A stretch of DNA of 64,000 nucleotides from Armatimonadota bacterium (lineage in GTDB: Bacteria; Armatimonadota; UBA5829; DSUL01), in assembly GCA_039811685.1 (NCBI GenBank), contig JBDHZC010000002.1, positions 512,001 through 576,000 on the forward strand. The letters are read 5' to 3'. This document shows positions 6,484 through 28,123 of this stretch, one piece after another (the stretch's first letter is position 1; every line of letters begins with the position of its first letter). The translations under genes and the position numbers were made by a program. Below the pieces are notes generated by a model. That model did no database searches. It worked only from the letters and a program-made list of their open reading frames with translations, and had not been told where the DNA came from.

Positions 6484-9400
6484 CTACTCTATGTCAGACT
6501 GACGCCTTGGCCTGAGAACACTGCGATAACCGCCGGAGGCTGGTTCCATAGATATGACACCTGTCACCGTAACCATCTGTCCGATAGCCGGAGGCGTGAT
6601 CACTTGCCCACTGGCCAGCCCGCTGAAGCTCACTTTGATGCCGCTTCCACCCGCGGGGTCGCTCACGCCGGAGCCATCGTCCATCACCCAGTACCCGGCA
6701 TCAATGGCTGTGATGCGCCCTGTGGTTTTGCACAGCAGTCCGATACTGTTCAGGCCGTTGCCGCCGGTGACACCGGGCTGTCCGGAGGCGGGTGGTCCAC
6801 CGCCGAGGTCTTTGTTGCGCATAACAACCGGAGCTATCTGCTGCGCGCTGTTGGTAATCTGGAGCGTGCTCAGGCGGATAGCGCGTTCACCACCTGAGTT
6901 TATAAGGGCGCCTGCAATGCTGACTTCCGAGCCTTCCGAGGGCATTACCTGGCCGGTCGGAACCACCTTGATGGCCGCTCCTCTGCTCGGCTCCTCCACA
7001 TAGAAGCAGTCCGCGTAAACAGCCGTTACAATCTTGCCCGCCAGATTCACAACCACACCGTCCGAATTGAGCTTCGCCTGCCCGATATTCTGCTGCGCCG
7101 CTGACTGCACAACCAGAATACCGTCTGAGAATCCTGTCGCGCTCCAGATGCGTGCGCCATTTCGCGCGGTGGCCGAGAAGTAGTACACCACACCCGGCGT
7201 CAGATCCAGATCGGAGCGGGTCACAGATGTTTGAGTTCCCACGCTTGTCCAGGGTATCACGTCGTCTGTTCCGGGCCACGTGCCGATAGCGTAGCGGTAC
7301 TCGACGACACCGGACTCGGGATCGGAAGAAGACCACGAAGCAGACAGAGTTGTCAGACTGGTTGTCGCCGCGCCTGTGTCAAGGACGGTCGGCGTGATCG
7401 GAGGAGTGGAGTCCGCAATGTTGGAATCCTTAAAGTTGAACACTGTGCCGTTGTAGGACGCCACCACAACGCTACCATCGTTGGAGATCACCGGCGACGA
7501 CAGCACCGCATAGCCTGTCTGATACTGCCACTTCAGATTGCCGCCAGTGTCCAGCGCATACACGTGCCCGTCGCCTGAACCGAAATAGATATAGCCGTCC
7601 TGGGAGACCACGGGAGATGAGCGCACCATCCCATTGGCGTCAAACTGCCATTTGACTGTTCCGTTCGGATTCAGCGCCATGAACAGTCCGTAAGACCAGT
7701 CGTTGCCGAATCCCACATACACCGTACCATCCGGCGTGACCGAGGGTGAGCAGTCTGGCGGCCAACCCATATAGTAGCGCCACTTGAGAGTGCCGTTCGG
7801 ATTCAGCGCGTAGAAATAGCCGTCTCCGGAACCGGCAAATATGGCGCCGTCCGGGCCAATGGCCGGAGAGGCGTCCACCGCGCTGCCCGTCTGGTACTTC
7901 CACTGCAGAGTGCCAGTGGCTGCATCCAGAGCATAAATTGCCCCATCTCCAGACCCGAAATAGATCGAGCCTGTATCGCTGAGCGCTGGTGAAGACCACA
8001 AAGAGCCGCCTGTAGTGTACTTCCACTTCTGGGTGCCGTCCGGGTTCAGGGCGTAGAAAGACCAGTCCTGACAGCCAAAGTACACGGTCTGGTCTGGGGT
8101 GATCAAAGGAGACGACCAGATCGCATCACCCGCATTGAAGCGCCAGCGCAGTTGCCCGTTGGAGGCCAGAGAGTACAGATAGCCGTCGTACGAACCGAAG
8201 AAAACCGTCCCGTTGGCTCCGATTGCGGGTGAGGAGTCCACCGGCCCGTTGGTCTGGTACGTCCACTTCAGCGTGCCATTCCGCGAGATCGCATAGAGTT
8301 TTCCGTCACCACTCCCGTAGTAGATCGTGCCGTCACCGGCGATAGCGGGCGAGGAGTCCAGCCAGCCGTTTACGTTGTACTCCCACATCAGAGCGCCAAC
8401 GCGCGACCCTGACAGATTGCTGATGCCCCTGTTTTTGCTGTCCCCGCGGAACTTGGACCATGTGACGGAGGAGACGTATGTGATGCCATCGCTTACGCCC
8501 ACGGCGCTCCACAACCCAGCCTTGTTGCGCGCCTTGACAGCGAAGTAGTACGTCTGACCCGGGTTCAGACTCAATCCGGAGCGGCTGATCTGTGTCGCCG
8601 CGCCTGCGCTGGTGAAAGGCACAACATCCGTACCGCCAGGCGAGGTTCCGATAGCGTACTGAAACTCGGCGATGCCGCCCTGAGGATCTGAAGCGCTCCA
8701 CGAAGCCTGCAGGAAATCTCCGGAAGCTGTCACATCGCCGTCGTCTGTAACCACCGGCGTGCTTGGCGGCGTCGTGTCCACAGCAATACCGTCACTCGTA
8801 CCAACCTGGCTCCACAGATTGACGCTGTTGCGCGCTCGCACCGCAAAATAGTAAACAACGCCTTCAGAGAGACTCAGTCCATTGCGGGTGACAGAAGGCG
8901 TTATGCCGGTTGATGTCCAGTTGACGACACTTGTGCCTCCGGGTGAAGTGCCGATGGCATACTGATATTCGACAATGGCCGTATGCGGCTCAGAAGACGA
9001 CCAGACCGCATGCAGCGTGTTTGTCGAAGAGGTGTACTCCCCGTCATCCGTGACAGCCGGCCTGGACGGCGCGCTGGCGTCAACGGTGATGCCGTTGCTA
9101 GTCCCGACAGCGCTCCACTGACTGGCATTGTTGCGCGCTTTGACAGCAAAGTAATACGTCTGACCGTCCTGAAGGCTCAGACCGGCTCTTGTAACCTGCA
9201 GCGCCGTGCCGGCCGATGTCCAGTTGACCACATCCGTAGCGCCAGAAGTCGTGCCGATGGCGTACTGGTACTCCGCGATACCGCTTTGCGCGTCTGCTGC
9301 GCTCCAGGAAGCGTGCAGCGAGGCGTTCACGGTGGTAAACTCCCCATCATCAATCACTGTCGGAGTGGATGGAGGAGAGGAGTCAATGATTATGCCATCG

Positions 9401-12400
9401 CTGACGCCAACCGCGCTCACTAACCCTGCGCCGTTGGTAGCCCGGACTGAGAAGTAATAGACTCCACCTTCCGTCAGATTCAGGCCACTTCTGGTAACCT
9501 GCGTATCTGTGCCCGCAGATGTCCAGTTGACGACGTTGGTCAACCCGGGCGCTGTCCCGATCGCGTACTCATACTTCGCTATGCCACTCTGCGGGTCGCT
9601 GGCAGCCCATGACGCGTGTAGCGACGTGGCGGAGGAGCTGTAAGCGCCGTCATCAGTGACGGTTGGCTGGGTCGGAGGAGTGCGATCGACAGTGATACCG
9701 TCGCTGACGCCGATGGGACTCATCACACCGACGGCGTTGCGCGCGCGCACAGCAAAGTAGTAGGTGACCCCGTCCTGCAGCGAAAGCCCGGAGCGCGTAA
9801 CGCCCGCCGTCGTACCTGTCGAAGTCCAGTTGACGATGTTGGTAGCGCCGGAGGTCGTCCCAATCGCATACTGATATTCAGTGATGCCACTCACTCCCGG
9901 GTCCGCCGTCCATGTTGCGTGAAGCGTCGTGCCGGACTGAGTGTAATCTCCGTCGTCTGTGACGACCGGCCGCCCAGGACCGCTTGAGTCCACGGTAATT
10001 CCATCGCTGAAACCGGAAGAGCTCCAGTGTCCGGCCTGATTCAAAGCCCGAACCGAGAAATAATAGGTTACGCCGTTTTGCAGGTTGAGACCGGTGGCTT
10101 CCACAAAGCTGTTGGTCCCGGTCGAAGTCCAGTTCACGACGTTGCTGGAGCCCGGGCTGGCGCCGATGGCGTACTGGTACTCAGCAATCCCGCTTTGAGG
10201 GTCTGAGGCGCTCCAGGTAGCGTGGAGTGTATCCGTTGAAGACGTGTAAACTCCGTCATCCGTGACTACGGGAGTCGTAGGCGGCGAGCGGTCAATCGTG
10301 ATACCGTCGCTTGACCCAACCGGCCCGAGCAATCCCGCGCCGTTACGCGCCCGAACGGAGAAGTAGTAGGTGACTCCCTCCGCCAGCGAAAGCCCGGAGC
10401 GAGTGACGGACGTAGTTCCTCCAACTGAGGTCCAGTTGACTACATTTGCCGCGCCAAGCGTAGTGCCGATGGCGTACTGATACTCGATAACGCCACTTTC
10501 AGGGTCTGAAGCGCTCCAGGTTGCGTGCAGGCTGTCTGTGGCGCTGGAGAAGGCGCCATCGTCGGTCACAACCGGGGCGGAGGGCGCGCTGCCGTCCACT
10601 GTGATGCCGTCGCTGACACCAACAGCGCTCCACAGTCCTGCGCCGTTTCTGGCTTTCACGGCGATGTAGTAAACAACTCCGTCCTGTAGCTGCAGGCCTG
10701 TCGCCGTCGCCTGCAGCGCCGTGCCAGCGGATGTCCAGCCCAGAACATTTGTGGCGCCTGGTGTGGTACCAATGGCGTATTGATACTCTGCGATTGCACT
10801 CTGGACATCGGTGGCAATCCAGCTACCGTGAAGCTGATTGCGCTGCGAAGTGTACTGCCCGTCGTCTGTCACCACCGGCGTAGAAGGCGGCGTCAGATCC
10901 AGCCGGATCCCGTCACTCACACCAACAGAGCTCCACAAATCGGCCCCGTTGCGCGCGCGGACGGAAATATAGTAGGTCACCCCGTCCTGCAGAGAAAGCC
11001 CGGTGCGAGTCACCTCTGCCGCGCCGCCCGTCGACGCCCATCCGGTCACTTCCGTTCCCCCAGGTGAGGTGCCGATGGCGTACTGATAATCCGCAATACC
11101 GCTTACCGGGTCCGAGGCGCTCCAGACGGCGTGCAGGGAGTTCGCGCTGGAGGTGAATGCGCCGTCATCCGTCACGACGGGCGCGCCTGGTGGCGTTCTA
11201 TCCACCGTAATCCCATCGCTCTTTCCGACCTGACTCACAAGTCCCGCTCCATTGGTGGCGCGAACGTAAAAATAATAAGTCTGGCCGTCAATCAGCGGGA
11301 GGCCATTTCGCGTTACAGTTGTCGCAGACCCTACCGATGTCCAGCCAACCAGGTCGGGATTGGCGCCACCGGTCCCTATGCCGTATTCATATCCAACAAC
11401 CGCAGAGTGTGGGTCCGAAGACGACCACCACGCCCGCAGCGTGTTCGGCGACGAAGTAAACTGCCCGTCATCTGTAATCAGAGGCGTCGTCGGTGGGCTG
11501 GAATCCACAATCACGCCATCGCTGAAGCCCACCTGACTCAGTTGACCTGCGCCGCTGGTTGCCCGGACAGAAAAGTAGTACGTGGTCCCGTCAGTAAGCG
11601 ACAGCCCCGTAGCTGTGACACTGGTCGCGTTTGTCTGTGTCCAGCCCTTGACGTCCGTCTGACCCTGTCCGGAGCCGATTGCGTACTCGTAGAACGCGAT
11701 ACCGGATTCTGGATCACTGCTTGACCAGGTCGCATGCAGGGAACTGGAGCTCGTGCTGTAGCTGCCATCATCCGTGACAACCGGTGTCGATGGCGGAGTG
11801 CGGTCCAGTTTGATGCCGTCGCTTGTGCCAACGCTGGAAACCAGGCCAGCGGCATTTGTAGCCCGCACGGAGAAATAGTAGGTTACGCCATCCTGGAGAT
11901 TCAGTCCCGCGCGCGTAACGGAAGCTGTTTGTCCGGTAGATGTCCAGCCGACAACATTAACCGCTCCCGGCGATGTACCTATCGCGTACTCGTAGAGTGT
12001 AATGCCGCTTTCAGCGTCTGCCGAAGTCCAGGACGCGTGCAGTGAGGTGCTGAGGTTTGTGTACTGCCCGTCGTCCGTCACCACCGGCGTAGAAGGCGGC
12101 GTGAAGTCCACGGTGATTCCGTCTGAGACGCCGATGTCCGACCAGACGCCTGCGCCGTTTTTGGCCTTTACACTGAAATAGTAGCGTGCGCCGTTGGTCA
12201 GGGCCAGCCCGCTGCGCGTCACCGAAGCAGCCGTGCCAGTTGACGTCCATCCAAGCACGTCCGTACCGCCGGAGGTGGTTCCGATAGCGTACTGGTACTC
12301 GCTGATTCCGGTCTCCGGATCCGAGGCAGACCAGGTCGCGTGCAGAGATGTAGCGCTGGTGCTGTAGCTGCCGTCGTCAACAACGACCGGAGTTGTTGGG

Positions 12401-13521
12401 GGCGTACTATCACGCACAAACGAATAGAGTTTGCCGTCGCTGCACCCCGCGTAAAGTGTCCCGTCCTGAGCGATAGCGGCCGAGCTGTAGCCAGACCCGC
12501 CCAGTGACGACTGCCACAGGATAGAGCCATCCGGCTGAAACGCGTACAGCTTGCCGTCGAAAGACGGGCAATAAATCGTGTCGTCTCCGCCGACGGCTGG
12601 GGAAGCCTGAATTTTGTCCCCTGTCGCGGTGCGCCACTTGAGCGTGCCTTGAGGAGTAATTGCGTAGAGATAGGTATTGTCTGAACCTATGTAAATGGTG
12701 CCATCAGAGCCTATGGCCGGTGAAGATGTCACTGCCGCGCCAATGTTGTAGCTCCAGTTCAGCACGCCAGCCTGAACAGCGTACAGATAGCCGTCCGCGC
12801 TCGCTATGTAGACGACTCCGGCGCTGTCGATGGCCGGAGAGGAGTCGAGACGGTTAGAGGCTCGATAACGCCATGCCCGCGTACCGTTTGGCTGCAAGCA
12901 GTACAGGTAGCCGTCCTGCGCTCCGAAATAGATCCGTCCGTCCGCGCCGATTGCCGCTGAAGACAGGATCGGAAACGCCACGTAGTAATTCCACTTGATG
13001 GAACCGTTCGAGTTAATCGCGTAGAAACGGCCGTTTGTCGATCCGCAATACACTGTTCCATCAGGCGCTACTGCCGGGGAAGCCTTGACCTGCTTCCCAA
13101 TACCAGTGCGCCACTTCAGAGTTCCGGATGACGTAATGGCGTAAACATAATAATCATCTGACCCGACGTAGACTGTTCCGTCTGATCCAACAGTTGGCGA
13201 AGAATAGCTGCCGGAGTGGACGTTGTAGCGCCACTTCTGTGTGCCGTCCGGATTGACGGCGTAAAGGTACTGATCCTGCGAGACAAAGTAAACTGTCCCG
13301 TCCGGCGCCACCGCCGGCGATGAAGATATGCCTGCGCCTGTGGTGAATGTCCAGCCCGCAATTCCCACCGACGGCCCGACGGTTGCCGTCCGTCCAGTAC
13401 CGCGGATATCGGCACGGAAGCGTGGCCACCCGCTCTGGGCAAGCTGCGCCAGAGAAGGAGCTGATGCGGCTGCCAGCCCTGCCGAAACGAGCACAGCGAT
13501 TGCTATTGACCTGATGCGCAC
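6484..13521 (-). CDS. Giant secreted protein (~2345 aa): PQQ-like beta-propeller, 13 FN3-like repeats, second PQQ-like propeller, 1 FN3-like repeat, shared C-terminal OB-like module
   Basis: GTG start after a GGAGGAGG RBS; signal peptide (..SAPSLA). Repeats SSPA(I/V)xxDGTIYxGSxDGxLYAxxxxGxxKW form the propellers, and ~101-aa repeats DxTPPxTPVVTDDG...W...YQYAIGT...TYYFSVRAxNxAG form the stalk. Confidence 0.9.
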   Translation of the reverse strand: MRIRSIAIAVLVSAGLAAASAPSLAQLAQSGWPRFRADIRGTGRTATVGPSVGIAGWTFTTGAGISSSPAVAPDGTVYFVSQDQYLYAVNPDGTQKWRYNVHSGSYSSPTVGSDGTVYVGSDDYYVYAITSSGTLKWRTGIGKQVKASPAVAPDGTVYCGSTNGRFYAINSNGSIKWNYYVAFPILSSAAIGADGRIYFGAQDGYLYCLQPNGTRAWRYRASNRLDSSPAIDSAGVVYIASADGYLYAVQAGVLNWSYNIGAAVTSSPAIGSDGTIYIGSDNTYLYAITPQGTLKWRTATGDKIQASPAVGGDDTIYCPSFDGKLYAFQPDGSILWQSSLGGSGYSSAAIAQDGTLYAGCSDGKLYSFVRDSTPPTTPVVVDDGSYSTSATSLHATWSASDPETGISEYQYAIGTTSGGTDVLGWTSTGTAASVTRSGLALTNGARYYFSVKAKNGAGVWSDIGVSDGITVDFTPPSTPVVTDDGQYTNLSTSLHASWTSADAESGITLYEYAIGTSPGAVNVVGWTSTGQTASVTRAGLNLQDGVTYYFSVRATNAAGLVSSVGTSDGIKLDRTPPSTPVVTDDGSYSTSSSSLHATWSSSDPESGIAFYEYAIGSGQGQTDVKGWTQTNATSVTATGLSLTDGTTYYFSVRATSGAGQLSQVGFSDGVIVDSSPPTTPLITDDGQFTSSPNTLRAWWSSSDPHSAVVGYEYGIGTGGANPDLVGWTSVGSATTVTRNGLPLIDGQTYYFYVRATNGAGLVSQVGKSDGITVDRTPPGAPVVTDDGAFTSSANSLHAVWSASDPVSGIADYQYAIGTSPGGTEVTGWASTGGAAEVTRTGLSLQDGVTYYISVRARNGADLWSSVGVSDGIRLDLTPPSTPVVTDDGQYTSQRNQLHGSWIATDVQSAIAEYQYAIGTTPGATNVLGWTSAGTALQATATGLQLQDGVVYYIAVKARNGAGLWSAVGVSDGITVDGSAPSAPVVTDDGAFSSATDSLHATWSASDPESGVIEYQYAIGTTLGAANVVNWTSVGGTTSVTRSGLSLAEGVTYYFSVRARNGAGLLGPVGSSDGITIDRSPPTTPVVTDDGVYTSSTDTLHATWSASDPQSGIAEYQYAIGASPGSSNVVNWTSTGTNSFVEATGLNLQNGVTYYFSVRALNQAGHWSSSGFSDGITVDSSGPGRPVVTDDGDYTQSGTTLHATWTADPGVSGITEYQYAIGTTSGATNIVNWTSTGTTAGVTRSGLSLQDGVTYYFAVRARNAVGVMSPIGVSDGITVDRTPPTQPTVTDDGAYSSSATSLHASWAASDPQSGIAKYEYAIGTAPGLTNVVNWTSAGTDTQVTRSGLNLTEGGVYYFSVRATNGAGLVSAVGVSDGIIIDSSPPSTPTVIDDGEFTTVNASLHASWSAADAQSGIAEYQYAIGTTSGATDVVNWTSAGTALQVTRAGLSLQDGQTYYFAVKARNNASQWSAVGTSNGITVDASAPSRPAVTDDGEYTSSTNTLHAVWSSSEPHTAIVEYQYAIGTSPGGTSVVNWTSTGITPSVTRNGLSLSEGVVYYFAVRARNSVNLWSQVGTSDGIAVDTTPPSTPVVTDDGDVTASGDFLQASWSASDPQGGIAEFQYAIGTSPGGTDVVPFTSAGAATQISRSGLSLNPGQTYYFAVKARNKAGLWSAVGVSDGITYVSSVTWSKFRGDSKNRGISNLSGSRVGALMWEYNVNGWLDSSPAIAGDGTIYYGSGDGKLYAISRNGTLKWTYQTNGPVDSSPAIGANGTVFFGSYDGYLYSLASNGQLRWRFNAGDAIWSSPLITPDQTVYFGCQDWSFYALNPDGTQKWKYTTGGSLWSSPALSDTGSIYFGSGDGAIYALDAATGTLQWKYQTGSAVDASPAIGPDGAIFAGSGDGYFYALNPNGTLKWRYYMGWPPDCSPSVTPDGTVYVGFGNDWSYGLFMALNPNGTVKWQFDANGMVRSSPVVSQDGYIYFGSGDGHVYALDTGGNLKWQYQTGYAVLSSPVISNDGSVVVASYNGTVFNFKDSNIADSTPPITPTVLDTGAATTSLTTLSASWSSSDPESGVVEYRYAIGTWPGTDDVIPWTSVGTQTSVTRSDLDLTPGVVYYFSATARNGARIWSATGFSDGILVVQSAAQQNIGQAKLNSDGVVVNLAGKIVTAVYADCFYVEEPSRGAAIKVVPTGQVMPSEGSEVSIAGALINSGGERAIRLSTLQITNSAQQIAPVVMRNKDLGGGPPASGQPGVTGGNGLNSIGLLCKTTGRITAIDAGYWVMDDGSGVSDPAGGSGIKVSFSGLASGQVITPPAIGQMVTVTGVISMEPASGGYRSVLRPRRQSDIE
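8476..12411 (-). repeat. 13 tandem ~303-bp intragenic repeats encoding FN3/Ig-like domains
   Basis: Thirteen consecutive units start D-x-(T/S)-(P/A/G)-P and end SDG(I/V)xx (one unit SNG); 3936 bp / 13 is about 303 bp. DNA copies are diverged while the protein motifs are conserved. Confidence 0.88.
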
Positions 13522-13603
13522 TCCCGACTTCCTCCTCCATACCAGAGCGCATTTGCCAGAGAGGCTAAGCACCGATATCCGCGCAAAGTACGATTACTCC
13601 TGT

Positions 13604-16600
13604 CTAAGGGGCCGCAATATCCGACTGCTTTCGCGCCAGGATCCGGCGTCTGAGTGTGGTCCCGGAGGACTCTGACGAGCTGACACCTGTAACTATCAAC
13701 GCGTCGCCAAGCGCGGGCTTGGTGAGGGAGCCGCACTGAACCTTGACACCCTGATGCCCGGAGCCATCGTCAAGGGCTTTGCCGTCGTCTAGATAAAAGA
13801 ACGGCTCTGCTCCTGTGCCGACATAGGTCACCTTGCCGGCCATTCTGATAAGCAGACCCACGTTGTTGGAACCCAGGAATGCCGAGCCGATATTCGTGTT
13901 GATGAGCAACCCTGTACCGCCGATGCTGAAGCTGCGCATGGTGAGCGGCGCCGGAATCACTCCGGCCGGATTGACCACCGTCACGTTTGAAGCGGTAATC
14001 TGGCGCTCGCTGCCGACAGTCTCAATCGTGCCCATAATATCCACTACGTTGCCTTCCTGGACATTCGCATTGGTGACAACTTTGATTCCTGCGACACGGT
14101 TGGGTTCTTCAATGTAGAAGATACCGCCCAGCTGATCTGTCCCGGCAATAGCCACCTTGCCTGATATGGAAACACTCGTTCCGTCGCTCAGGGCCTTGGC
14201 TGCCTCGATGGTGGGCACGACAATAGCATTCGGGTCATTCAACGTCCTGCCAACCAGACGTTTGGACGCGTTTTTGAAACGGGAGTAGAAAACAGCCTGC
14301 GCTGAAGCGCCGCCAGCAATGACGGGGGCGTACTCTGAATAGTTCGAACTCGCCATCACTGTCGGATTGGCGTCAATCACAATCCCCGCTGCGTTCAGCC
14401 GGGTGAGGTAGATGTCGTAGTTGGATACTGCAGCGCGATTGTCCTGCCAGGCAACGATGTAGTTGGAGCCTGCCCAGCACAGACTGGGCGCGCTCTGCTC
14501 ATTCGGAGCCGTGACAATCGCCAGATCACTTCCAACAACCGCAGCCGCCGTGGACAGTCGCGTTCCGTAGATATCAAAGACGTAGTTGTTCCGCGCGTCC
14601 GACCAGACGACCAGATACTCAGAGCCATTGTAGGCTATCTTCGGTTGCGCCTTCAGGGACGGCGCGGACGAAAGCTGCACTCCCGCGGCCTGGCCGATCG
14701 AGCCGTTGTTCAGCACTTTTGTCGCGTAGATGTCGCCCTGACCCGAGCGCTGATCCTGCCAGACCACCATGAAATCCGTGCCGTCCGAAGCTACGGAAGG
14801 CTCAAGCTGATCGCCCAGAGCCCCACTCACGACGCCGCTAAGAGGCATCAACGCGCCGGCAGAAGTGACAAAAGTCCCCATAATATCGGTGAAGTAGTTC
14901 GGCGCGAGGCCGGTTCGCTGGTCGCGCCACACAACGAGATACTTCGTACCGTTCCACGCTATGGAAGGCTGACTCTGATCGAGATCGGCAGAAGCGATGA
15001 GGATAGGGGAACCGACCGGCTGCATGTTCGCGTCCAGCCGAACACCCCGGATATCGTAGCTGTAACCGATGAACTCCTTCCACGCCACCAGATAACCCGA
15101 TCCACTCCACGCGATCGCGGGTTCCAACTGCTCCGCACCCGCGGCCAGCAAGATACCCTGCGCATCCTGCACAATGCCGTTGCTGTCAACCCTGGCGCCG
15201 TAAATCTGGTAGTAACCGTTGCGGCGATCGGCCCAGACTACTCCGTAACCATTTCCATTCCAGCAGGCTGCATAGGATGGCTGGCTCTGAATCGCGCTTG
15301 AAACGAGATTGGTGCTTACGATTCCTCCGAAGACGTTCATCTTCGTTACGAACACGTCGGAGTTCGTCGGATCAATGGTGTACCAGGCGACCAGACCAGG
15401 AGCGATACGCGGACCCCTGTTTCCCGTGGAGGCATTGGTGACGACCGGAAACGGCTGCAAATCGAGAGTCTGAGCGCTGCTGTTCAGCCTGCAACCTTTG
15501 ATGTAGCGCGTGCCAACCTGACGGTCCCGCCACACCACCATAAACTGCGTTCCGTCCCAGGTAATGTCCGGTATCTCCTGATCCCCACTGCCCGGAAAGA
15601 TAGACTTGCCGCCGGTATCGACCACCGACCCGGCTGTTGTGTATCGCGTCCCGTAGATGTCGAGATCGCTTCCTCTGCCGTCCTGCCAGACAATAATAGC
15701 TGTCCCGGTGGAATCGCACGCCACAGACGGGGAGAGCTGCGGGCCCAGAGCCCCGGCGGCAGGAGCGCCCGCGCGGTTTGAGATCAGAGTGTCACCGCCC
15801 TGCTTCTGTGTGGAGGAGTTGATGCGGCAGCCGTAGATGTCCGTGTCGCTTGATTCAGAGTTGCGCTGGTCTTCCCAGACCACCACGTAGTTTGTCCCGT
15901 TCCACGCGATATCCGGATTCTGCTGGTTGTCTGCGGTGAAGGCGATAGCCGATCTGTTGGTCACAGCGCCCGCCGCGGTCACTCGCGCTCCGACAATGTC
16001 GAATCCGGTTCCCTGATTCTCCTGCCACACCACGTGCCAGTCCGTGCCGTTGCTGGCCACCGCCGGCAGATACTGCTCTGGGACGGGATTGTTAGGATTG
16101 ATCGGGGCCGTTATCGAAATCGGGAAGCCGTCCGGATCCAGAATGCTGCCGGAGGTGCTGACGCGCGCGCCGTAGATGTGCGGCTTGGAGTCCACCGCGC
16201 GACGGTCCGACCACACCACCAGAAAGTTCGAGCCGTTCCAGGCGACAGCCGGATTCATCTGGTCGCGCGCCGCGTGACCACCACTCGAGGTAGAAGAGAT
16301 CAGGAAAGCCTCTCCCATTGCCGGGACGCCGCTGGAATCGAGAAAGATCCCGTAGATGTCGTAGCCCGTATCAGGATCATTCGAGGAGTTCAGACGATTT
16401 CGGCTGTCCTGCCACACGACGAGATAGCCTGTCCCGCCCGCTGCGACCGCGGGAGCTTCCTGCGTGAAAGGCGCCGCAACACTGACCTGCCCGACCGGAA
16501 ACTCCGGACCTGCGGCGATCTCTGCCGCTCGCGCCTCCCCAATCAGAGCGCATCCGGCCAGCGCTACCCATGCGATCAGACTGCTGCGTACGATTGTGCG

Positions 16601-20100: not shown

Positions 20101-20142
20101 GCTCCTCGTAACTATACGGGGATTCGGCGCTTTTCTTAGTAA

Positions 20143-20208: not shown

Positions 20209-21447
20209 ATGAGTAGAAAAAACGAACAACAGTTTAGAAGCGCCATCAGACTTTGGAGCCTCGCGGCAAGTGTTGCCATTGCGGCATTCTGCGCGACCTC
20301 CGGATTCGCGGATGCGTTTTTCCACATGGACGCCCAGCGCACCGGCCGTGCGGAGTTTTCCGGTCCATCAACCGGCGCAGTCCTCTGGCGTTACCAGACC
20401 GGAGGGCTGATAACCTCATCTCCCTCTGTCGGGCCAGATGGCACTATCTATGTGGGGTCCTTTGACCGAAAGCTGCACGCCGTACTTCCCACCGGAACCC
20501 GTCAGTGGGCCTTCACCACAGGTGGCTACGTCGGATCGTCTCCCGCGGTGTCCAGCTCTGGGGAGATATACTTCGGTTCTGACGACGGGTGGATGTACGC
20601 CCTGAGCCAAAGTGGCGCGCTGGACTGGAGCTTCCAGACACCGGTACTGGGGCCGACTCCGAGCGGCCCGATCTCGAGCGCTCCTGTTCTGAGTGGCAAT
20701 GATCTGATCTTCACGGCGGATGCCGGACGAGTGTGGAATCTCAACTCTACCACAGGCGCCGCGCAGTGGAACTTCCTGATGCCTCAGTTCTCCTACTCTT
20801 CACCCACAATCGGCCACAACGGCGACATCTATGTGGGAGACGGAAATGGCAAAGTGTACGCCCTCAGCGCTGCCGGCCAGCAGCTCTGGTCCTATCAGAC
20901 CGGAAACCAGATATTTGCGGCGCCAGCGGTCGGCGACGATGGCACTATCTATGCGACCAGCTCCGACGGCTACCTTTACGCACTTAACCCAAATGGCACA
21001 CTCAAGTGGAAATATGCCGCTCCGCCAGGAATCGGCACCACTCCAGCCATTGGGCACGATGGCGCCATTTATATTGGTGGCGCTGACAGTAAGATTCACG
21101 CCATCAGCCCGACCGGACAGCGGAAATGGATTTTCCACACCAATGGGCCAATCTACAGCTCTCCGCTGGTGGACAAGGACGACAACATCTACTTCGTGAA
21201 CAACGGTGGGGTATTTCAGTCTGTCACACCTCAGGGAGCGCTGAGGTGGAGTGTTGGCATCGGCTCTGTGTCTTACTCATCTCCGACAATGGGACCGGAC
21301 GGCATCATCTACGTGGGAGCGAACGACAACTATCTCTACGCCATCGGCCCCTCTGGCTACGTCATCCCTGAGCCTTCCAGCCTGCTGCAGTTGGCAGGTC
21401 TGGTGAGCGGCCTGGCCGCCTTCGGAAGACGCCGCATCCGGCGCTAA
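20209..21447 (+). CDS. PQQ-like beta-propeller protein with PEP-CTERM sorting signal
   Basis: Signal peptide (..TSGFA); ~8 SSPx(V/I)GxDGxIYVG...LYA...W repeats; C-terminus IPEPSSLLQLAGLVSGLAAFGRRRIRR (PEP + TM + Arg cluster). Confidence 0.92.
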   Translation: MSRKNEQQFRSAIRLWSLAASVAIAAFCATSGFADAFFHMDAQRTGRAEFSGPSTGAVLWRYQTGGLITSSPSVGPDGTIYVGSFDRKLHAVLPTGTRQWAFTTGGYVGSSPAVSSSGEIYFGSDDGWMYALSQSGALDWSFQTPVLGPTPSGPISSAPVLSGNDLIFTADAGRVWNLNSTTGAAQWNFLMPQFSYSSPTIGHNGDIYVGDGNGKVYALSAAGQQLWSYQTGNQIFAAPAVGDDGTIYATSSDGYLYALNPNGTLKWKYAAPPGIGTTPAIGHDGAIYIGGADSKIHAISPTGQRKWIFHTNGPIYSSPLVDKDDNIYFVNNGGVFQSVTPQGALRWSVGIGSVSYSSPTMGPDGIIYVGANDNYLYAIGPSGYVIPEPSSLLQLAGLVSGLAAFGRRRIRR

Positions 21448-21470
21448 GCAGCCTTCACCACATACGCAGC

Positions 21471-21501: not shown

Positions 21502-21572
21502 CTACTGCGCGCTATGACTGATGAGCGAATCAGCCTTTGTCCCCCGCTTATGCCCGATTATCTCTCACAGGT

Positions 21573-24500
21573 CTACGGATGGGGCACGGCCACGGTGATG
21601 TCTGAAGAGCGGCGCACTCTTACAACACGCCTGTAGCCGCCGCTTCCGTCCGGCTCCATTGTGCTGATTCCTGTAACTGTGACAAAGTCCCCTGCCGCGG
21701 GCTTTGCGAGTGTCCCACACAACACCTTCGCCGTAACTGGATCGCTATTGTAGCTTGACCCGTCATTGATGGTAAACGAATCCGCAGAGACCGACTCTAC
21801 CTGGCCACCCACCTTCACGAGAAGTCCGATGTTGTTCAACCCGTAGCCCGTGTGCACACCTGGCGTATTAGGATTCAGCGCACCGCCGCCCAGTGAGCTC
21901 AACCGCATCACGAGCGGAAGTATGGCCGGGTTGCCGGAGAGATTCACCGTGACCGAGCTTGCGTCAATAAAGCGCTCCCCGTTCAACGTCTGGATTGTGC
22001 CGCGCACCGTCACGCTGTCACCCTCCTGGAGAGTCTGTGCCGTGGCGACGCGGATGCCGGAGCTGCGGTTGGTTTCCTCGATGTAGAGATACTGTGGATA
22101 CTCCTGCGTGGATCCCGCTGTGACAATCTTGCCGTTTAACAGCACCTGATCACCGTCCGGCAGCGCCTTTATGGCAGAAATAGACGCTGTGCCCGAAAGC
22201 AAACCGAGGAAATCCGCCTCGGAGCTCATCCCCCACACCGCATTGACAGTCTGCGACGCAGGCGAGAATGTCCAGGACGGCTTAGCGGCGCTGAGGGAAT
22301 AGAGTCCGGGAGCGAGATCATCAAGTGTGTACGATCCGTCAAGCGCGGTAAGCGCGGACTTCCCGCCCGGGCTGGCCGTGATGGTCACTCCGGGCACCCC
22401 GTGCTGATCAGTCACGGCCTCATAGCGGTCTGTGATGAAGCCCCAGTCCGAGTTCCCAGGGTCTGACGTCAGCACAATCTTCAGAGAATCACCGTTCACC
22501 CACTCAGACCAGACGTCACTGTAGTGCCCGGTGAAAGTATCAATGATCTGATCGCTGGAGTCCGTAACATCAATGAAGTCAAATCCGGGCTCCACCTCCA
22601 GGCGCGTGAAGTGCACCCGGATCTTGGAAGCCCCTTGCGGCCCCTGCACAGTGTAGGTCTCCGAGACGTTGTCACCATAAGGATGCTGAGACTGCAGTAC
22701 AACCGCTTCCTGCACAGTCGTCCCGACAGTCACAGACCCCGTGATCGTCGCTGGCGGACGCGCTGTGAAGTTAACTCCCGAGAGCGTGCTGCCCGGGGAA
22801 GGCTCAGCGCTCCGGGCGTTTGGCTGGAACTGCCAGTTTGGATACGAAGGCGTCACGGTGTAGGACACAGGCTCCAGCCCCGACAGAGTATAAGCGCCTC
22901 CCACGCCGGTAGTTGTGGTATGGTTGCCTGGCTGAGCTGTAACAGTGACGCCGGCAGGAGCGGGCTCTGTCAACAAGTCCGTTTCGTAGCCATCCATCCT
23001 GAAGCCGTAGTCCACACCTGTTGCGTCCGTCACCAGATGCAGTACCAGCGCATTGCCGGGCACCCACTGGCTCCAGTAGTCCGTCTTGTTGCCGGTGATG
23101 TCCTGATAAGGAGTCCCGTCAGCATCCTCAATGTAGAGATGATCCAGACCATTCTGCAGCGCCACTTCGTCAAAGTGAGCGCGGATATGCGTAGCGCCCA
23201 CAGGTCCTGTCACCGTGTACTTCACATCGGAGTTGTTCTGGTAGTTGTGCGGTGATTCGACTTCGTAAGCCGTCACACCGCCCAGAGCTTTTTGAATGAC
23301 ACCGCTGATAGACGCAGGGGCCGCAGAGCCGGTGAAATCAACCCCCGGCGCCGCCTGATCTGCCACAACTACTGCCGTACTTGGCGGAGCGAACGTCCAG
23401 CCGGTCTTGGCGGCAGAGACGGTGTAGCTGTCCGCCGGCAGGCGCAGAGTGTAGCGTCCGTTAGCGCCCGTTGTCGTGTCTTTGGTCGCGCTGGACCCTG
23501 TCGCTGTGACCGTGGCTCCCGCGATGGGATTTCCGGACGTGGACAGCAGCGTTCCCGTAATATAGGAACCTGGAAGGTGACCGGAGGCCACAAGCGCAAA
23601 AGGCTGCGGGCCGCCTGGAACGCTAAAGCCTGTGACCGTGACCGTATAAACGCCCGTCAAAGGCACGCTGACGTCCACGCTTTCAACATTGTTGACGCTG
23701 TCTGTGGCGCCGTTGCCGCGGTAAACTGTGCCGTTGGGAGCCGTGACAGAGAGATTCAGATCATTCACCAGCTCTTTGGCTGCCAGAGGAGAGCCTGGAG
23801 GATCAGTCCACACCAGCGTCACCGCAAACGGAGCGTCGCTTCCAAGCACCGTGTACTGATACGTGCGCGTCTGCCCCGTTGAAATACCGGAGGTTTCGTC
23901 CACATATTCGATCTGCCTGGGCGCTGGCGGGTCTATGGCGGCATTCACATCCACGCGCCCCCAGCCTTCAACGCTGTTCGGGCGCACGGGAATCTCAGGA
24001 GGCACGGCTCCGATATACTGCCCCGGCGCCATGTCTTTTGCGCTGTTGAGCAGCGCCGCCTTCACGAGCGCGGCGCTTGGAGCTATGCCAAACGATGAGT
24101 TCAAATACTGTCTGAGGAGGACGGCCGAGCCTGCCACCGCCGGAGCAGAAAAGCTGGTGCCACCCCAGTAGCTGTAGTGAGAATCATACGGCATCCATCC
24201 CGGGTTGCCGACAAGCTGGCTGCTCAAAGCCACAATATTTGTGCCGGGCGCGCAGATATCGGGCTTGATGCGACCATCGGCGCATGGGCCGCGGCTGCTC
24301 CACGCCGCCATGCCGCTCGGATTGTCAGAAATTGGATCGCTGTTTATCGGCGCCTGTGGGAAATCTGACCCCCAGTACGTCCCGTAGGACTGGGAGCGGC
24401 CGGTGGCGCGCAGGCTCTCAGTGGCGCCCACGGAAATACAGTTTTTCGCAGTGGCGGGGGAATAAAGCGCGCCGGAGTCAGTCCGTCCGTCAGCGTTTGC

Positions 24501-25622
24501 GTCCACGCCGTCGTTTCCTACGGGAAAGACCAGAACCGCGTCTTTATGATTCCAGACGAAATCGTCCACCTGCTGCGAAAGTGTTGTGTACTTCCCCTCC
24601 ACAGGGGATCCCCAACTGTGGTTCTGAACGCGGGCGCCGTCCAGATAGGGCGGCTGGAAGAGCTGCGAGAGAGTCACGGGCGGATAGACAAAGGAGCTTC
24701 CGTCACCTATGGACTGCATGATAATGGAAGCCTCAGGCGCAACCCCGCAAAAGGAATCTGTATACGTGTGGGAGCCAGCGTTGGAGCCAGACAGCGCTCC
24801 CGAGCCTGCCGCCACAGACACGCAGAAAGTGCCGTGCCCGCTCAGGTCGCTCCAGTCGTCTGGGCGGCGCAGAGCGTACGTCTTGATAACGCGGCCGGCC
24901 AGGTCCGGGCTCAGTGTAGCCAGGTTGCCAGTGTCCAGACCGGAATCCGCAAAAGAGATGATCTCACCCGCGCCAAAAAGCCCGGTTCTGTTGCGAACGG
25001 GTGTGACACCGATGATGGACTGCACAACGTTGTTGGCAGCGCGCGGAGGCGCCCACTCTTCAATCCAGCGCACTTCCTCGAGACCCGCAATCCGGTCCAG
25101 AGCTCTGGCCGGGATTGTGGCCAGCAGAATGCCGCCCGCCACATCGCTGTCGCGCAACAACTCGCCACCGCTTGCGCTGATGACCTGGATGACGGTTGTG
25201 GCTGCTTCGTCACCAAAGACCCGGATGAGGACTGTCAGGCTCTTCTGCTGAGTCTTTTTTTTCAGGTGAGGATCAATACGATAGCGAGCATGCAGCCTTC
25301 CCATCCAGGCGATACAGGCAAGCCCGCGCACCTTGGCAATCTGAGAGCGTTTGAGACGCGCTATGTAGGCGTTCTCCGGCAGGTAGTCCCGCAGCTTGAC
25401 ACCCATCTTCTGAAGTGAAGCCTTCCACTCTGGTCGGGGTGTCCCGCTGAACTGGAGGATGTAGTATCCACCGCGAGAGGGCGTCAGGCTCTGAAGCTGC
25501 ACTGTGCTCTTTACTTCCCTGTCCACCGGTCCAGCTTTCAGCAGCAGAGGCGCGGGGGCGCTCCAGACGCTGGTTGCAGCCATCAAACAAAGGAAGACAG
25601 AGATCAGAAAGGGTCTGTTCAT
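21573..25622 (-). CDS. Secreted S8 subtilase (Kp43-like) with pre-peptidase C-terminal, carboxypeptidase-regulatory-like and two CUB-like domains plus shared C-terminal OB-like module
   Basis: Catalytic triad motifs FADSGLD, SGHGT and GGTSFSAP; SSRGPCADGRIKPD, EGWGRVD and LVNDLNL. CUB-like repeats ESPHNY/QSQHPY...IR(A/V)HF...GF. Signal peptide from MNRPFLIS. Confidence 0.92.
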   Translation of the reverse strand: MNRPFLISVFLCLMAATSVWSAPAPLLLKAGPVDREVKSTVQLQSLTPSRGGYYILQFSGTPRPEWKASLQKMGVKLRDYLPENAYIARLKRSQIAKVRGLACIAWMGRLHARYRIDPHLKKKTQQKSLTVLIRVFGDEAATTVIQVISASGGELLRDSDVAGGILLATIPARALDRIAGLEEVRWIEEWAPPRAANNVVQSIIGVTPVRNRTGLFGAGEIISFADSGLDTGNLATLSPDLAGRVIKTYALRRPDDWSDLSGHGTFCVSVAAGSGALSGSNAGSHTYTDSFCGVAPEASIIMQSIGDGSSFVYPPVTLSQLFQPPYLDGARVQNHSWGSPVEGKYTTLSQQVDDFVWNHKDAVLVFPVGNDGVDANADGRTDSGALYSPATAKNCISVGATESLRATGRSQSYGTYWGSDFPQAPINSDPISDNPSGMAAWSSRGPCADGRIKPDICAPGTNIVALSSQLVGNPGWMPYDSHYSYWGGTSFSAPAVAGSAVLLRQYLNSSFGIAPSAALVKAALLNSAKDMAPGQYIGAVPPEIPVRPNSVEGWGRVDVNAAIDPPAPRQIEYVDETSGISTGQTRTYQYTVLGSDAPFAVTLVWTDPPGSPLAAKELVNDLNLSVTAPNGTVYRGNGATDSVNNVESVDVSVPLTGVYTVTVTGFSVPGGPQPFALVASGHLPGSYITGTLLSTSGNPIAGATVTATGSSATKDTTTGANGRYTLRLPADSYTVSAAKTGWTFAPPSTAVVVADQAAPGVDFTGSAAPASISGVIQKALGGVTAYEVESPHNYQNNSDVKYTVTGPVGATHIRAHFDEVALQNGLDHLYIEDADGTPYQDITGNKTDYWSQWVPGNALVLHLVTDATGVDYGFRMDGYETDLLTEPAPAGVTVTAQPGNHTTTTGVGGAYTLSGLEPVSYTVTPSYPNWQFQPNARSAEPSPGSTLSGVNFTARPPATITGSVTVGTTVQEAVVLQSQHPYGDNVSETYTVQGPQGASKIRVHFTRLEVEPGFDFIDVTDSSDQIIDTFTGHYSDVWSEWVNGDSLKIVLTSDPGNSDWGFITDRYEAVTDQHGVPGVTITASPGGKSALTALDGSYTLDDLAPGLYSLSAAKPSWTFSPASQTVNAVWGMSSEADFLGLLSGTASISAIKALPDGDQVLLNGKIVTAGSTQEYPQYLYIEETNRSSGIRVATAQTLQEGDSVTVRGTIQTLNGERFIDASSVTVNLSGNPAILPLVMRLSSLGGGALNPNTPGVHTGYGLNNIGLLVKVGGQVESVSADSFTINDGSSYNSDPVTAKVLCGTLAKPAAGDFVTVTGISTMEPDGSGGYRRVVRVRRSSDITVAVPHP

Positions 25623-26032
25623 AAGGAGTCCGCCAGGTACACTTGAGGTAGTGGAGGTTACTGGAACAACGAATCTGGCCGTTACCGGCACACGCGAAAA
25701 CAGCCGGGCCCGACACGCAAAACCCCACACATGGAAGTATACCGTACTGCCTGCGCCGAGTATCCAAACAGGTTTTCTTCACAGGGAGAAGACAAAGGGC
25801 TGGAGCCTGGCTGGCCGCCATTACTGTGACTGTAATCTCCATCCGCACGCGAATCGCCGAATACGGCAGCGAACCTCGATCAATATCCGCTCCGCACAGG
25901 CAAAGGTACTGGTTTTGTCCGCGAAGCGCCCCGCTGAGGGCACGAAAGACGTATAATAGATAAGAACCACTTCTTCCCTGACCCTGCGTCCGCCGCACAG
26001 TCACAAACGAGACCAACCACAGGAGCCTTCCT

Positions 26033-28123
26033 TTGCGACTTATCCACCTGCGACTCGCCACTTTCGCCCTTCTCGCCGCCCTGTCTGCGCCAGGCTCGGC
26101 CGCTATCTACGTCTCTCAGTCCGCGCCCGGTCCGCTGCACAACGGCGCGTCATGGCTAAGCGCCTACAAGTCACTGTCGCAGGCGCTCAGTGTGGCGACA
26201 GCTGGGTCTCAAGTGTGGGTAGCGCGGGGGACATACGTCGGGACGTTTACGGTGCCGGCGAACGTCGCTGTGTTCGGAGGCTTCGCGGGCACGGAGAGCG
26301 CTCTGGCCGGCAGAAATCCCAACAGCAACCGCACAATTCTTGACGGTGCGCTGGCCGGCTCTGTCGTGACGATAAACGCAGGATCTCAGGTGGACAGCTT
26401 CACGATCCGAAACGGCCGCAGCTCATCCGGAGCCGGTATCGTCGGGACTAACGCGATCGGCGCGATTATCTCCAATAACACCATCGAGAATAACACCAGC
26501 ACATCCGATGGAGGCGGAATCTATCTGTACTCCAACGGCTGGTCCAACAGGGTCATCATCAGGGGCAATCTCGTACGAGGCAATTCTTCCGGTGGCAGTG
26601 GAGGGGGCATGGGACTCTACGGTCCTGGCCATACGGAAGCGGACTCTCCACAGCTCTTTGACAACGTCGTGCGTGACAACAAAGCCGCTACGGATGGTGG
26701 CGGTATCTGGGCCTACTTCTCAACACCGCGCGTTGAGCGCAACATGATCTGGAAAAACCGCACAGGCAGAAACGGCGGCGGTCTGTTCATCTATCACAGC
26801 TACGCAACAATCATCTGGAATCACTTCTGGATGAACCGCGCCGACTCCCCCACAAAGGGCGGTGGCGCGCTGTTTATCGACTTCCACTCGACGCCAACCG
26901 TTGCCGACAATATCTTTGACCGCAACACTGCCTTTCAGGGCGGCGGCACGTGGAACGAGTACCAGAGCCAGGCTAAAACCTGGCGCAACATCTTTACAGG
27001 CAATACAGCCACTTCCGGCGCGGGCATCTACATTGCTCAGGGCGCCTCACCGGAAGTTACCAACAGTCTTTTCCTTCGCAACAAAGCCGCCTACGGCGGC
27101 GCGGTAAGCGCGGACTATCCGTCCTCCTCACCCGGTTTCAAGTTTACGCACAACACTGTCGTTTCCAACTCTGCGACGGTCTCTGGCTCAGCGCTGTCTC
27201 TTACGCGCTACGCCAGCGCGGGTGTGGCTAACAACATCTTTGCGCACAACTCCGCCCCGGATGGCACGATAGCGCGAGACTCCACCTCCTGGCCAAACCT
27301 GGTGGGCAACGACTTCTGGCAAAATACAGGCAGCAATCTCGCCGGTGGGACTGATCCAGTTGGCACGCTTGGCAACATCTCTGCCGACCCGTCCTTCGTC
27401 AACCCCTCAATTGACTGCTACCAGCTTCAGCCTGGCTCCGCCTGCATAGACACGGCCAGCGCCAGTGCCGCAACCACCTATGACCTCAACAACCGCCCGC
27501 GCCCGTTCGACGGAGATTCCAACGGATCCAGCCTTCCGGACATCGGCGCCTATGAATACGGAACCGGTCCGCTGGTGCTCTTTGCTGTGCAGCAAGCCTA
27601 TCAGCTTCCGCCTGGCGTCAGTGTGGCTATCTCTCCGCGTGTCGTGAACGGCTCGTGGGAACAGGGCTTCTTCGTGCAGGACTTTGACAGGACGCGCGGA
27701 CTGAAGATCGAAACCTCCGCAACGCCTCCGCCTGCAGGACGTGTGGTGAGCGCACAGGGAACGCTCTCGGACGCCGCAGGGTACCGCACACTCTCCGCGG
27801 CTTCGTGGGCCGGTACGGACACAGCCTTCGCTCTCGCCCAGCCCCTGGCCATGGCGCTACCGCGTGCAGCGGAGACGATCGGGCTGTCCAACATCGGGCT
27901 GAGCGTGAGCATAACCGGCAAAGTGGAAAACCTGGAAACAGACGGATTCTGGATGAGTATTAACGGACAGTCACTCACGCGCATCTACTGCGATCCTGCG
28001 TGGATTCCCGTCTCCGGCAAGACCTGCACGGTGATTGGAGTCGTTGACTACGACCCCGTCTCTGCGCCTGGCGGACGCATTGTCCGAGCGCGTACAGCCT
28101 GGGACATCATCCAGCAGGACTGA
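26033..28123 (+). CDS. Secreted right-handed parallel beta-helix protein with choice-of-anchor-Q-like region and shared C-terminal OB-like module
   Basis: Signal peptide (..PGSA); IYVS...GASW..AY...QVWVARGTY cap; many N..GGG(I/L) beta-helix coils; ADPSFVN...YQLQPGSACID...DIGAYEY; ends IVRARTAWDIIQQD. Confidence 0.85.
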   Translation: MRLIHLRLATFALLAALSAPGSAAIYVSQSAPGPLHNGASWLSAYKSLSQALSVATAGSQVWVARGTYVGTFTVPANVAVFGGFAGTESALAGRNPNSNRTILDGALAGSVVTINAGSQVDSFTIRNGRSSSGAGIVGTNAIGAIISNNTIENNTSTSDGGGIYLYSNGWSNRVIIRGNLVRGNSSGGSGGGMGLYGPGHTEADSPQLFDNVVRDNKAATDGGGIWAYFSTPRVERNMIWKNRTGRNGGGLFIYHSYATIIWNHFWMNRADSPTKGGGALFIDFHSTPTVADNIFDRNTAFQGGGTWNEYQSQAKTWRNIFTGNTATSGAGIYIAQGASPEVTNSLFLRNKAAYGGAVSADYPSSSPGFKFTHNTVVSNSATVSGSALSLTRYASAGVANNIFAHNSAPDGTIARDSTSWPNLVGNDFWQNTGSNLAGGTDPVGTLGNISADPSFVNPSIDCYQLQPGSACIDTASASAATTYDLNNRPRPFDGDSNGSSLPDIGAYEYGTGPLVLFAVQQAYQLPPGVSVAISPRVVNGSWEQGFFVQDFDRTRGLKIETSATPPPAGRVVSAQGTLSDAAGYRTLSAASWAGTDTAFALAQPLAMALPRAAETIGLSNIGLSVSITGKVENLETDGFWMSINGQSLTRIYCDPAWIPVSGKTCTVIGVVDYDPVSAPGGRIVRARTAWDIIQQD

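Follow-up and report, generated by a model that had tools for sequence, protein, structure and literature searches.

Why should four secreted proteins with unrelated cargo, encoded in one stretch of bacterial DNA, all end in the same module? The stretch, called the window here, is C2:512001-576000 (64,000 nucleotides) of the 3.42-Mb assembly of an Armatimonadota bacterium, which consists of 15 contigs and is 97% complete. A sequence-only reading of the window had pointed out the shared tail and suggested that it might be an undescribed domain for surface sorting or anchoring. We find that the tail belongs to a large module family, predicted to fold as two oligonucleotide/oligosaccharide-binding (OB) barrels, which occurs in the genomes of its class where exosortase and PEP-CTERM proteins occur. 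We tentatively read it, with a probability of about 0.45, as a non-covalent docking module for an exosortase-dependent surface coat.

The shared tail and its family

The four open reading frames (ORFs) and the modules located in them by a profile are the following.

6484-13572, minus strand: ORF of the PQQ-propeller/FN3 protein, 2362 aa (cargo domains by Pfam)
6484..7107, minus strand: its C-terminal tandem-OB module (profile, residues 2156-2361, E 1e-86)
13604-16684, minus strand: ORF of a 1026-aa protein with no Pfam family (Pfam and NCBIfam scans)
13604..14230, minus strand: its C-terminal tandem-OB module (profile, residues 819-1025, E 1e-87)
21573-25730, minus strand: ORF of a subtilase, Peptidase_S8 with CarboxypepD_reg (Pfam)
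21573..22193, minus strand: its C-terminal tandem-OB module, the copy used for folding (profile, residues 1180-1380, E 2.6e-89)
26033-28123, plus strand: ORF of a beta-helix protein, DUF1565/NosD-like (Pfam)
27569..28123, plus strand: its C-terminal tandem-OB module, the most diverged (profile, residues 513-696, E 4e-79)

Over their last ~185-207 residues the four proteins can be aligned with 22 invariant columns, and the other three tails share 37%, 41% and 25% identity with that of the giant PQQ/FN3 protein, the lowest value belonging to the beta-helix protein, whose tail had rightly been called the most diverged. The profile built from the four tails scores its own members at E 1e-79 to 1e-90, and therefore the likeness is not due to chance. 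One common C-terminal module on four secreted proteins with unrelated cargo is thus borne out; the module limits given earlier agree with the profile matches within ~20 nt, and the consensus motifs proposed then recur in an alignment of 30 paralogues, which contains FY..E..DRS.GIRV, GER, PL.M....LGG, GLNN.GLLV, DDGS and V.VTG and ends in R..R...DI. One label did not survive: the 1026-aa protein, described as a 14-blade propeller, matches no Pfam family and gave in NCBIfam just a sub-threshold match to a beta-propeller repeat.

The module is predicted with high confidence to be a tandem OB fold of ~200 residues, that is, two barrels and a conserved linker. The AlphaFold2 model calculated from the 30-paralogue alignment has two five-stranded barrels, with a pLDDT of 93.7 and a pTM of 0.89. 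Against 48,161 chains, VIA-align gave Z scores of 11.8, 11.3 and 10.9 for residues ~5-125 and of 11.1 and 10.9 for residues ~96-211, the matches of both halves being AspRS/AsnRS anticodon-binding, RPA, MCM and YgiW OB domains; YgiW (1nnx) superimposes on the first half with Z 10.9 and a root-mean-square deviation of 2.1 over 79 residues (TM 0.70). Foldseek matched the module to proteins that are themselves tandem-OB, namely POT1, Deinococcus SSB and HIN-200.

At the sequence level, no Pfam or NCBIfam model covers the module in scans of the tails, which returned BOF, PF01336, DUF5666 and YgiW/ExeM_NucH only, all of them sub-threshold. PF01336 reached E <= 0.01 in 3 of the 30 paralogue tails (best 9.4e-5, below the gathering cut-off), PF04076 (BOF) matched the window tails at E 0.04-0.17 with 12-15 bits against cut-offs of 25.8-27, and NF033681 (ExeM/NucH) gave 10-12 bits against a cut-off of 300, through the OB part of that model only. 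Profile matches in the PDB at E ~1e-3 comprise the N-terminal OB domain of an EEP nuclease (9sf9, E 1.3e-3), RPA14 and YgiW. No carbohydrate-binding module (CBM) family matched the module in the Pfam scans of the tails, and Pfam found no nuclease domain in the cargo of the four window proteins. The earlier comparison of each half with the extracellular OB domains of YhcR/ExeM nucleases therefore stands for the fold, while every sequence match stays below threshold. Homologues in the database go by the name 'hypothetical' or by that of their cargo, with precomputed Pfam lists empty over the tail, and the ESM Atlas neighbours of the module are Armatimonadota clusters. As had been suspected, the module family appears to be undescribed in the libraries and literature searched, where we found neither a model for it nor a published description.

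Searching the contigs of the genome with the four-tail profile gave 86 matches, and ORF calling followed by hmmsearch gave 80 module ORFs. With a new profile, based on 76 full-length copies, the number rose to 83; the median length of these ORFs is 819 aa, and they account for 6.1% of the genome's DNA. The expected abundance of paralogues is found in relatives as well, which hold tens per genome, counts running from 20 to more than 130 matches. By a crude sequence criterion, a signal-peptide-like start is present in 72 of the 83 ORFs and, among control ORFs no shorter than 300 aa, in 532 of 1468; a lipobox-like motif occurs in five module ORFs. In 67 ORFs (81%) no more than 15 residues separate the end of the module from the C-terminus, and in 15 it is followed by more than 30 residues; the proposed C-terminal placement on Sec-signal proteins is thus the prevailing arrangement and not a strict one, the exceptions being these 15 and the tandem copies described below. 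No C-terminal hydrophobic helix was found in any of the 83 ORFs (the top hydropathy of a C-terminal 18-mer is 1.87). What had been noted for the four proteins, namely the lack of a C-terminal transmembrane helix, a PEP-CTERM signal or an S-layer homology (SLH) domain, holds for every module ORF of the genome.

The cargo was surveyed by a Pfam scan of the 76 module ORFs outside the window. It includes Peptidase_S8, Amidase_2, Amidase_3, Exo_endo_phos, Metallophos and beta-helix/NosD/DUF1565 domains, at least eight glycosidase families (GHL10, GH10, GH39, alpha-amylase, arabinofuranosidase, glucoamylase and Glyco_hydro_cc among them), and GSDH, FGE-sulfatase, NAGPA, Laminin_G_3, F5/8 type C and lectin-like domains; one cargo is an EEP nuclease-like protein, and many module ORFs have no family at all. 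The carriers are the organism's secreted degradative arsenal. The smallest of them, 257-315 aa long, hold little beyond a signal peptide and the module. Three module copies stand directly after the signal peptide, further copies are internal, and some are followed by FGE-sulfatase or other domains; the ~170 residues after several copies look like a CBM4/9-type jelly roll, to judge from an N.GFE motif. Among the best 150 database representatives, the module is C-terminal in 110, and two copies occur in 21 and three in 3. Three tandem modules are carried by the database proteins P0005, P0006 and P0007. In composition the module has a median isoelectric point (pI) of 5.2, with 0.9% tryptophan, 2.2% tyrosine and 2.3% phenylalanine, and its conserved residues are mainly glycines and core valines. 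A conserved lysine near the module start was considered as a transpeptidation acceptor and rejected, since the 30-paralogue alignment shows arginine or an aromatic residue there as well as lysine.

Co-distribution with exosortase and PEP-CTERM proteins

A search with a single tail returned 9 loci, from Armatimonadota or metagenome-assembled genomes, and the module is present in 37 of 41 relatives, where the number of matches ranges from 2 to more than 76. Of 301 genomes that sample the phylum evenly, 38 match at E <= 1e-10. They are the genome itself, 30 of 33 others from its class and 7 of 267 from outside the class, each of these seven with one match (best 1e-42). The predicted taxonomic restriction is thus confirmed. 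The highest count, at least 135 matches, is that of the class genome G315 (5.6 Mb, 60% complete). A search of 1.84 billion representative proteins found 2361 that match at E <= 1e-30, and the looser limit of E <= 1e-3 raises the number to 7125 (representatives at 50% identity).

Phylogenetic profiling, which had been proposed as a way to a co-occurring system, found the exosortase/PEP-CTERM system, present in 48 of 48 module-positive and absent from 5 of 5 module-less class genomes. Exosortase (PF09721) occurs in 37 of the 41 genomes, and the four without it (G011, G014, G020 and G021) are the same four that lack the module, which we used as natural controls in this set. When the comparison covers 53 class genomes, 48 have exosortase, G316 joining the four that lack it; the module is likewise absent from G316 and present in the other 11 newly added genomes. 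The OB module hence shares the phyletic distribution of exosortase, with both in 48 genomes, neither in 5 and not one of the 53 discordant, and PEP-CTERM (TIGR02595) shows the identical 48/5 split. At the level of genera, exosortase and module are together in 30 and both missing from 3, again without a discordant case; the five genomes that lack them, all 84-99% complete, span 3 genera and 2 families. Since exosortase is common in the phylum (219 of the 301 genomes), the module arose within an exosortase-positive background, and where exosortase went missing the module was either lost too or not retained. Module counts also correlate with PEP-CTERM counts (Spearman 0.72 over the 41 genomes and 0.62 over the 37 module-positive ones; 0.27 with pseudopilins and 0.46 with genome size), although the p-values of these correlations overstate the case because the genomes are kin.

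The three exosortase genes of the genome lie in classical loci for extracellular polysaccharide (EPS), with EpsI, a Wza-like export protein, a chain-length/tyrosine-kinase protein, a priming transferase, GT4 and a flippase. Wza-like export proteins and EPS priming glycosyltransferases persist, with scores below the curated cut-offs, in all 5 module-less genomes. EPS in general was therefore rejected as the partner of the module, and its dependence seems to concern exosortase and PEP-CTERM rather than the export of polysaccharide at large.

A motif scan found 43 canonical PEP-CTERM ORFs in the genome (median 250 aa). A PEP-CTERM end is absent from all 83 of its module ORFs and likewise from 207 module proteins of the database (0/290), and no hydrophobic C-terminal helix was found in the 207. 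The genes of the two groups are nevertheless neighbours here: 17 of the 43 PEP-CTERM genes directly adjoin a module gene and 21 of the 83 module genes have such a neighbour, as against 2.6 +/- 1.6 adjoining PEP-CTERM genes (maximum 9) for random sets of 83 genes in 2000 draws. The adjoining PEP-CTERM proteins are small and look like beta-sandwich proteins. A canonical PEP-CTERM protein, overlooked in the sequence-only reading, is encoded among the module genes of the window itself.

20209..21447, plus strand: PQQ beta-propeller protein with a PEP-CTERM end, consisting of VIPEP, a hydrophobic helix and RRRIRR (Pfam, C-terminal sequence)

Its product ends ...VIPEPSSLLQLAGLVSGLAAFGRRRIRR, and the gene is convergent to the subtilase gene, 125 nt away. 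In G023, a genome of another family, a 412-aa PEP-CTERM ORF (L148:6133-7371, minus strand) adjoins a module gene; its length equals that of the window propeller (412 aa), which suggests conserved synteny of the pair. A small PEP-CTERM protein encoded at G000:C4:296079-296765 (minus strand) has a module gene on either side, of which one encodes an alpha-amylase, and contains a 'GDFNGWN' motif, which we take to be reminiscent of starch-binding E-set/CBM domains.

A further hint comes from the sequence just before the module. Choice-of-anchor domains and HAF repeats, as NCBIfam uses these names, usually sit before interchangeable C-terminal sorting signals. Such a domain had been reported in the beta-helix protein, and it is real.

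27419..27559, plus strand: choice-of-anchor Q domain (NF041518) of the beta-helix protein (residues 463-509, 30.9 bits against a cut-off of 25)

The end of this domain lies 4 residues ahead of the module. Choice-of-anchor Q scores above the cut-off in 6 of 60 scanned module proteins, and in 4 of these 6 the module begins 2-8 residues later; one HAF-repeat protein also carries the module. We count it as support that in choice-of-anchor Q proteins the module seems to occupy the slot of a sorting signal.

A proposed docking module weighed against its rivals

On the docking reading, the carriers would be exported by Sec and then retained, at a presumed extracellular location, on the exosortase-dependent coat of the cell through the module. 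This coat would be made of PEP-CTERM proteins processed by exosortase, or of a polymer that depends on them, and would offer the ligand that the module presumably binds. The module would thereby fill the role that a covalent or membrane anchor has in other surface proteins, and the carriers would reach the coat by an outer-membrane route that we assume. Copies at the N-terminus, in internal positions and in tandem are more in keeping with a domain that binds or docks than with a cleaved signal confined to the C-terminus. At the same time, a module that simply binds substrate is difficult to reconcile with the many enzyme types, with the fact that the module never occurs together with PEP-CTERM and with its disappearance along with exosortase. 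Because both the cleaved-signal and the substrate-binding readings are weakened in this way, we favour a docking module. A more specific, two-part form of the idea, in which small PEP-CTERM proteins that exosortase fixes at the surface, or the polymer, would be the receptor coat and large hydrolases would plug in through a tandem-OB 'dockerin' of new fold, is rather doubtful. The original proposal of a sorting or anchoring domain is partly supported. Its computational predictions came out as expected; the 15 of 83 copies that are not terminal and the proteins with two or three tandem copies depart from it, and the sorting or anchoring function itself is an inference. We found neither a known family, nor random internal or cytoplasmic placement, nor a local duplication, all of which had been named as counting against that proposal.

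Several points weigh against docking on an exosortase-dependent coat. The nearest fold relatives of the module bind nucleic acids, and its own acidic composition (median pI 5.2), with few aromatic residues, is not that of a typical glycan-binding module. Kinship leaves about three independent loss events behind the co-distribution. Three exosortase-positive genomes have few modules (G313 1, G015 2, G038 4). A weak module-like match (2.8e-13) also came from G108, an 88% complete genome outside the class that does not figure in the list of 219 exosortase-positive genomes. Module-less genomes hold 0-1 subtilase genes, so the cargo vanished along with the module, and the co-loss with exosortase could reflect the loss of a whole exo-digestive lifestyle. 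The PEP-CTERM proteins that adjoin module genes are heterogeneous, with no obvious common protein receptor or receptor domain. Their adjacency is clear here and in G010 and weak elsewhere: in five genomes of other class families, PEP-CTERM ORFs were present in 5 of 20 module-centred 10-kb regions (7 ORFs) and in 3 of 20 evenly spaced control regions (3 ORFs).

The envelope bears on another possible role. The genome encodes LpxC, one BamA, TamB, one SLH ORF and three secretins, and the organism is taken to be a diderm with lipopolysaccharide, in which Sec substrates would need a route across the outer membrane. LpxC and the genome's single Omp85/BamA lie <=6 kb upstream of the window (G000:C2:506405-511228); together with TamB they form an outer-membrane biogenesis neighbourhood beside the exoprotein cluster. 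The genome also has 43 prepilin-type N-methyl/DUF1559-like ORFs with a nearly identical N-terminal helix. The window features concerned are these.

912..5489, minus strand: TamB-like protein (Pfam TamB, E 5.5e-34)
32866..33807, minus strand: prepilin-type N-methyl/DUF1559-like pseudopilin (Pfam N_methyl, weak SBP_bac_10)
54684-55595, minus strand: second prepilin-type N-methyl/DUF1559-like ORF (family member)

The module might accordingly be a folded export or sorting signal that an outer-membrane translocation machine, type II-like or other, reads in the periplasm, and would then take its cargo through the outer membrane much as the C-terminal domain of type IX secretion does in Bacteroidota. 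A diderm envelope with LpxC, BamA, TamB and an OmpM-like SLH porin demands such a route, 81% of the copies stand at the extreme C-terminus with the R..R...DI ending conserved, and beside the three secretins there are the pseudopilin-like genes, 11 of which adjoin module genes as against 2.3 +/- 1.4 for random sets. Yet the machinery does not follow the module. Secretins occur in all 41 genomes in numbers unrelated to module counts, with one in G002 and G004, where ~77 modules match, and four in G011, which has none, and a dedicated secretin was therefore rejected as partner. Pseudopilin-like genes, also present in all 41, are most abundant where modules are few or missing (60 in G011, 73 in G015, at least 79 in G020 and G038), and none was found in the 20 module-centred regions of other class families; since the counts do not follow the module and adjacency is confined to this genome, the pseudopilin was dropped as a specific docking partner. 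Exosortase itself is not known to export proteins without a PEP-CTERM helix. With N-terminal, internal and tandem copies to accommodate as well, we regard an export signal as unlikely.

A substitute for the module was sought among other surface families. SLH-porin (OmpM) tethers are typical of diderm Terrabacteria, and the single SLH match of this genome lies in a 687-aa ORF at C4:68404. All 41 genomes have SLH, with 1-6 matches each, mostly N-terminal in OmpM-like ORFs of ~500-780 aa and in a minority in short ORFs of ~135-260 aa; being low-copy and mostly OmpM-like throughout, SLH was rejected as an anchor that the module replaced. No orthologue of the window subtilase was found in the module-less genomes. 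In G011 and in G021, the one subtilase present has another C-terminal domain, ~230 residues long, with the motifs GWN..S.P and GWN.(I/V)GNPF. This 'GWN...GNPF' tail is low-copy in all 41 relatives, often within one gene cluster, and for this reason was rejected as a module substitute. Its sites include the following.

G000:C1:722570-730589: 'GWN...GNPF' tail
L139:1023-1697, minus strand: 'GWN...GNPF' tail
L140:1087-1788, minus strand: 'GWN...GNPF' tail

In the 41-genome set, the SLH/OmpM-like, secretin, pseudopilin-like and 'GWN' tail families are all present in module-less genomes.

The OB fold itself speaks for a further reading, namely that the module is a general polymer binder, holding its carriers to extracellular DNA or a widespread polysaccharide on the substrate or in the matrix and so gathering scavenging enzymes on biomass; the link with exosortase would then be indirect, both belonging to a life in biofilms or flocs. 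The OB folds of both halves are of the kind that binds nucleic acids, with weak sequence hints to PF01336, BOF/YgiW, the ExeM/NucH OB domain and 9sf9 (E 1.3e-3); a cargo set that contains an EEP nuclease-like protein resembles a necromass-degrading arsenal, and tandem copies would fit avidity. However, substrate-binding modules freely join cell anchors, and yet none of the 290 module proteins carries PEP-CTERM. It is hard to see why a binder of a ubiquitous polymer should disappear from three genera exactly where exosortase does, and its one specificity, in an acidic and aromatic-poor module, would have to suit enzymes as different as proteases, amidases, amylases and phosphatases, all of which makes this reading improbable. 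The remaining alternative, a structural or maturation domain without targeting (an intramolecular chaperone, stabiliser or spacer, perhaps removed after export), seems very unlikely. It would account for C-terminal modules on many secreted hydrolases, in the manner of the pre-peptidase C-terminal or P-domains of proteases, for conserved residues that are mainly glycines and core valines, and for the fact that no direct partner was found. The cargo folds are too diverse, though, for a single chaperone domain, ORFs of 257-315 aa hold little but signal peptide and module, tandem copies exist, and the co-distribution and mutual exclusion with exosortase/PEP-CTERM would be left unexplained.

Further genes of the window lie between or near the module genes.

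17061-17741, minus strand: 226-aa ORF between module genes, no family match, signal-peptide-like start
18398-19648, minus strand: 416-aa ORF between module genes, no family match
28035-29948, plus strand: pectate-lyase-like protein with a C-terminal Golvesin_C in place of the module; since the last 89 nt of the beta-helix gene fall within the longest ORF, the true start is probably further downstream
36340-40527, plus strand: 1395-aa ORF with a signal-peptide-like start, without Pfam/NCBIfam family, module or PEP-CTERM

Known surface systems and significance

Constant terminal domains on exoproteins have repeatedly led to sorting machines, as with LPXTG/sortase, the C-terminal domain (CTD) of the type IX secretion system (T9SS) and PEP-CTERM/exosortase. 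In the T9SS type-A CTD of Bacteroidota, as in the module, a constant terminal domain is found on dozens of unrelated hydrolases and is restricted to a lineage. The module is unlike it in being an OB unit of ~200 residues rather than a beta-sandwich of ~80-100 residues, and in being not strictly C-terminal and sometimes tandem; TIGR04183 and PF18962 gave no match when the tails were scanned against all Pfam-A and NCBIfam models, no search being aimed at the T9SS machinery.

SLH domains anchor exoenzymes and S-layer proteins non-covalently to a secondary cell-wall polymer. They resemble the module as ~180-residue non-catalytic internal repeats at either end of diverse exoproteins, and also in depending on a polymer-modifying system encoded elsewhere in the genome. 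Unlike the helical SLH trimer, the module is predicted to form two OB barrels, and PF00395 did not match the four proteins or their tails. In the dockerin-cohesin system, hydrolases share a terminal module that docks on cell-anchored proteins, and the anchor genes often lie beside the enzyme genes. A terminal module shared by many hydrolases and, on the docking reading, attachment without a covalent bond would be common to both systems; the module differs in having no dockerin or cohesin sequence or fold and no repeated receptor domain that we could identify.

The OB domains of BOF/YgiW, ExeM/NucH and YhcR are likewise Sec-exported OB folds and give weak profile matches, but they are single OB domains or the N-terminal substrate-binding part of one enzyme type, whereas the module is a constant tandem unit common to ~80 different proteins. 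The PEP-CTERM system itself was described by Haft et al. (2006; PMC1569441), through phylogenetic profiling, as an exosortase (EpsH) system with paralogue-rich, diverse signal-peptide proteins in outer-membrane bacteria that have EPS genes. It shares with the module the many paralogues per genome, the diverse signal-peptide cargo and, within the class, the same phyletic pattern. Unlike PEP-CTERM (TIGR02595), the module is a folded domain of ~200 residues without PEP motif, transmembrane helix or basic tail, and it therefore cannot be a canonical exosortase substrate. A constant terminal domain that marks surface proteins is known; the literature and libraries searched gave no description of the module family, of an OB fold in such a role or of the tie to exosortase.

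The co-distribution with exosortase gives a testable handle on how uncultured Armatimonadota keep their hydrolases at the cell, and equally on the purpose of the exosortase/PEP-CTERM coat. The family would also help to annotate thousands of 'hypothetical' tails. If the two-part form of the docking reading is true, this would be the first non-covalent client system for exosortase, and the PEP-CTERM coat would gain a job as a cellulosome-like scaffold in a diderm bacterium.

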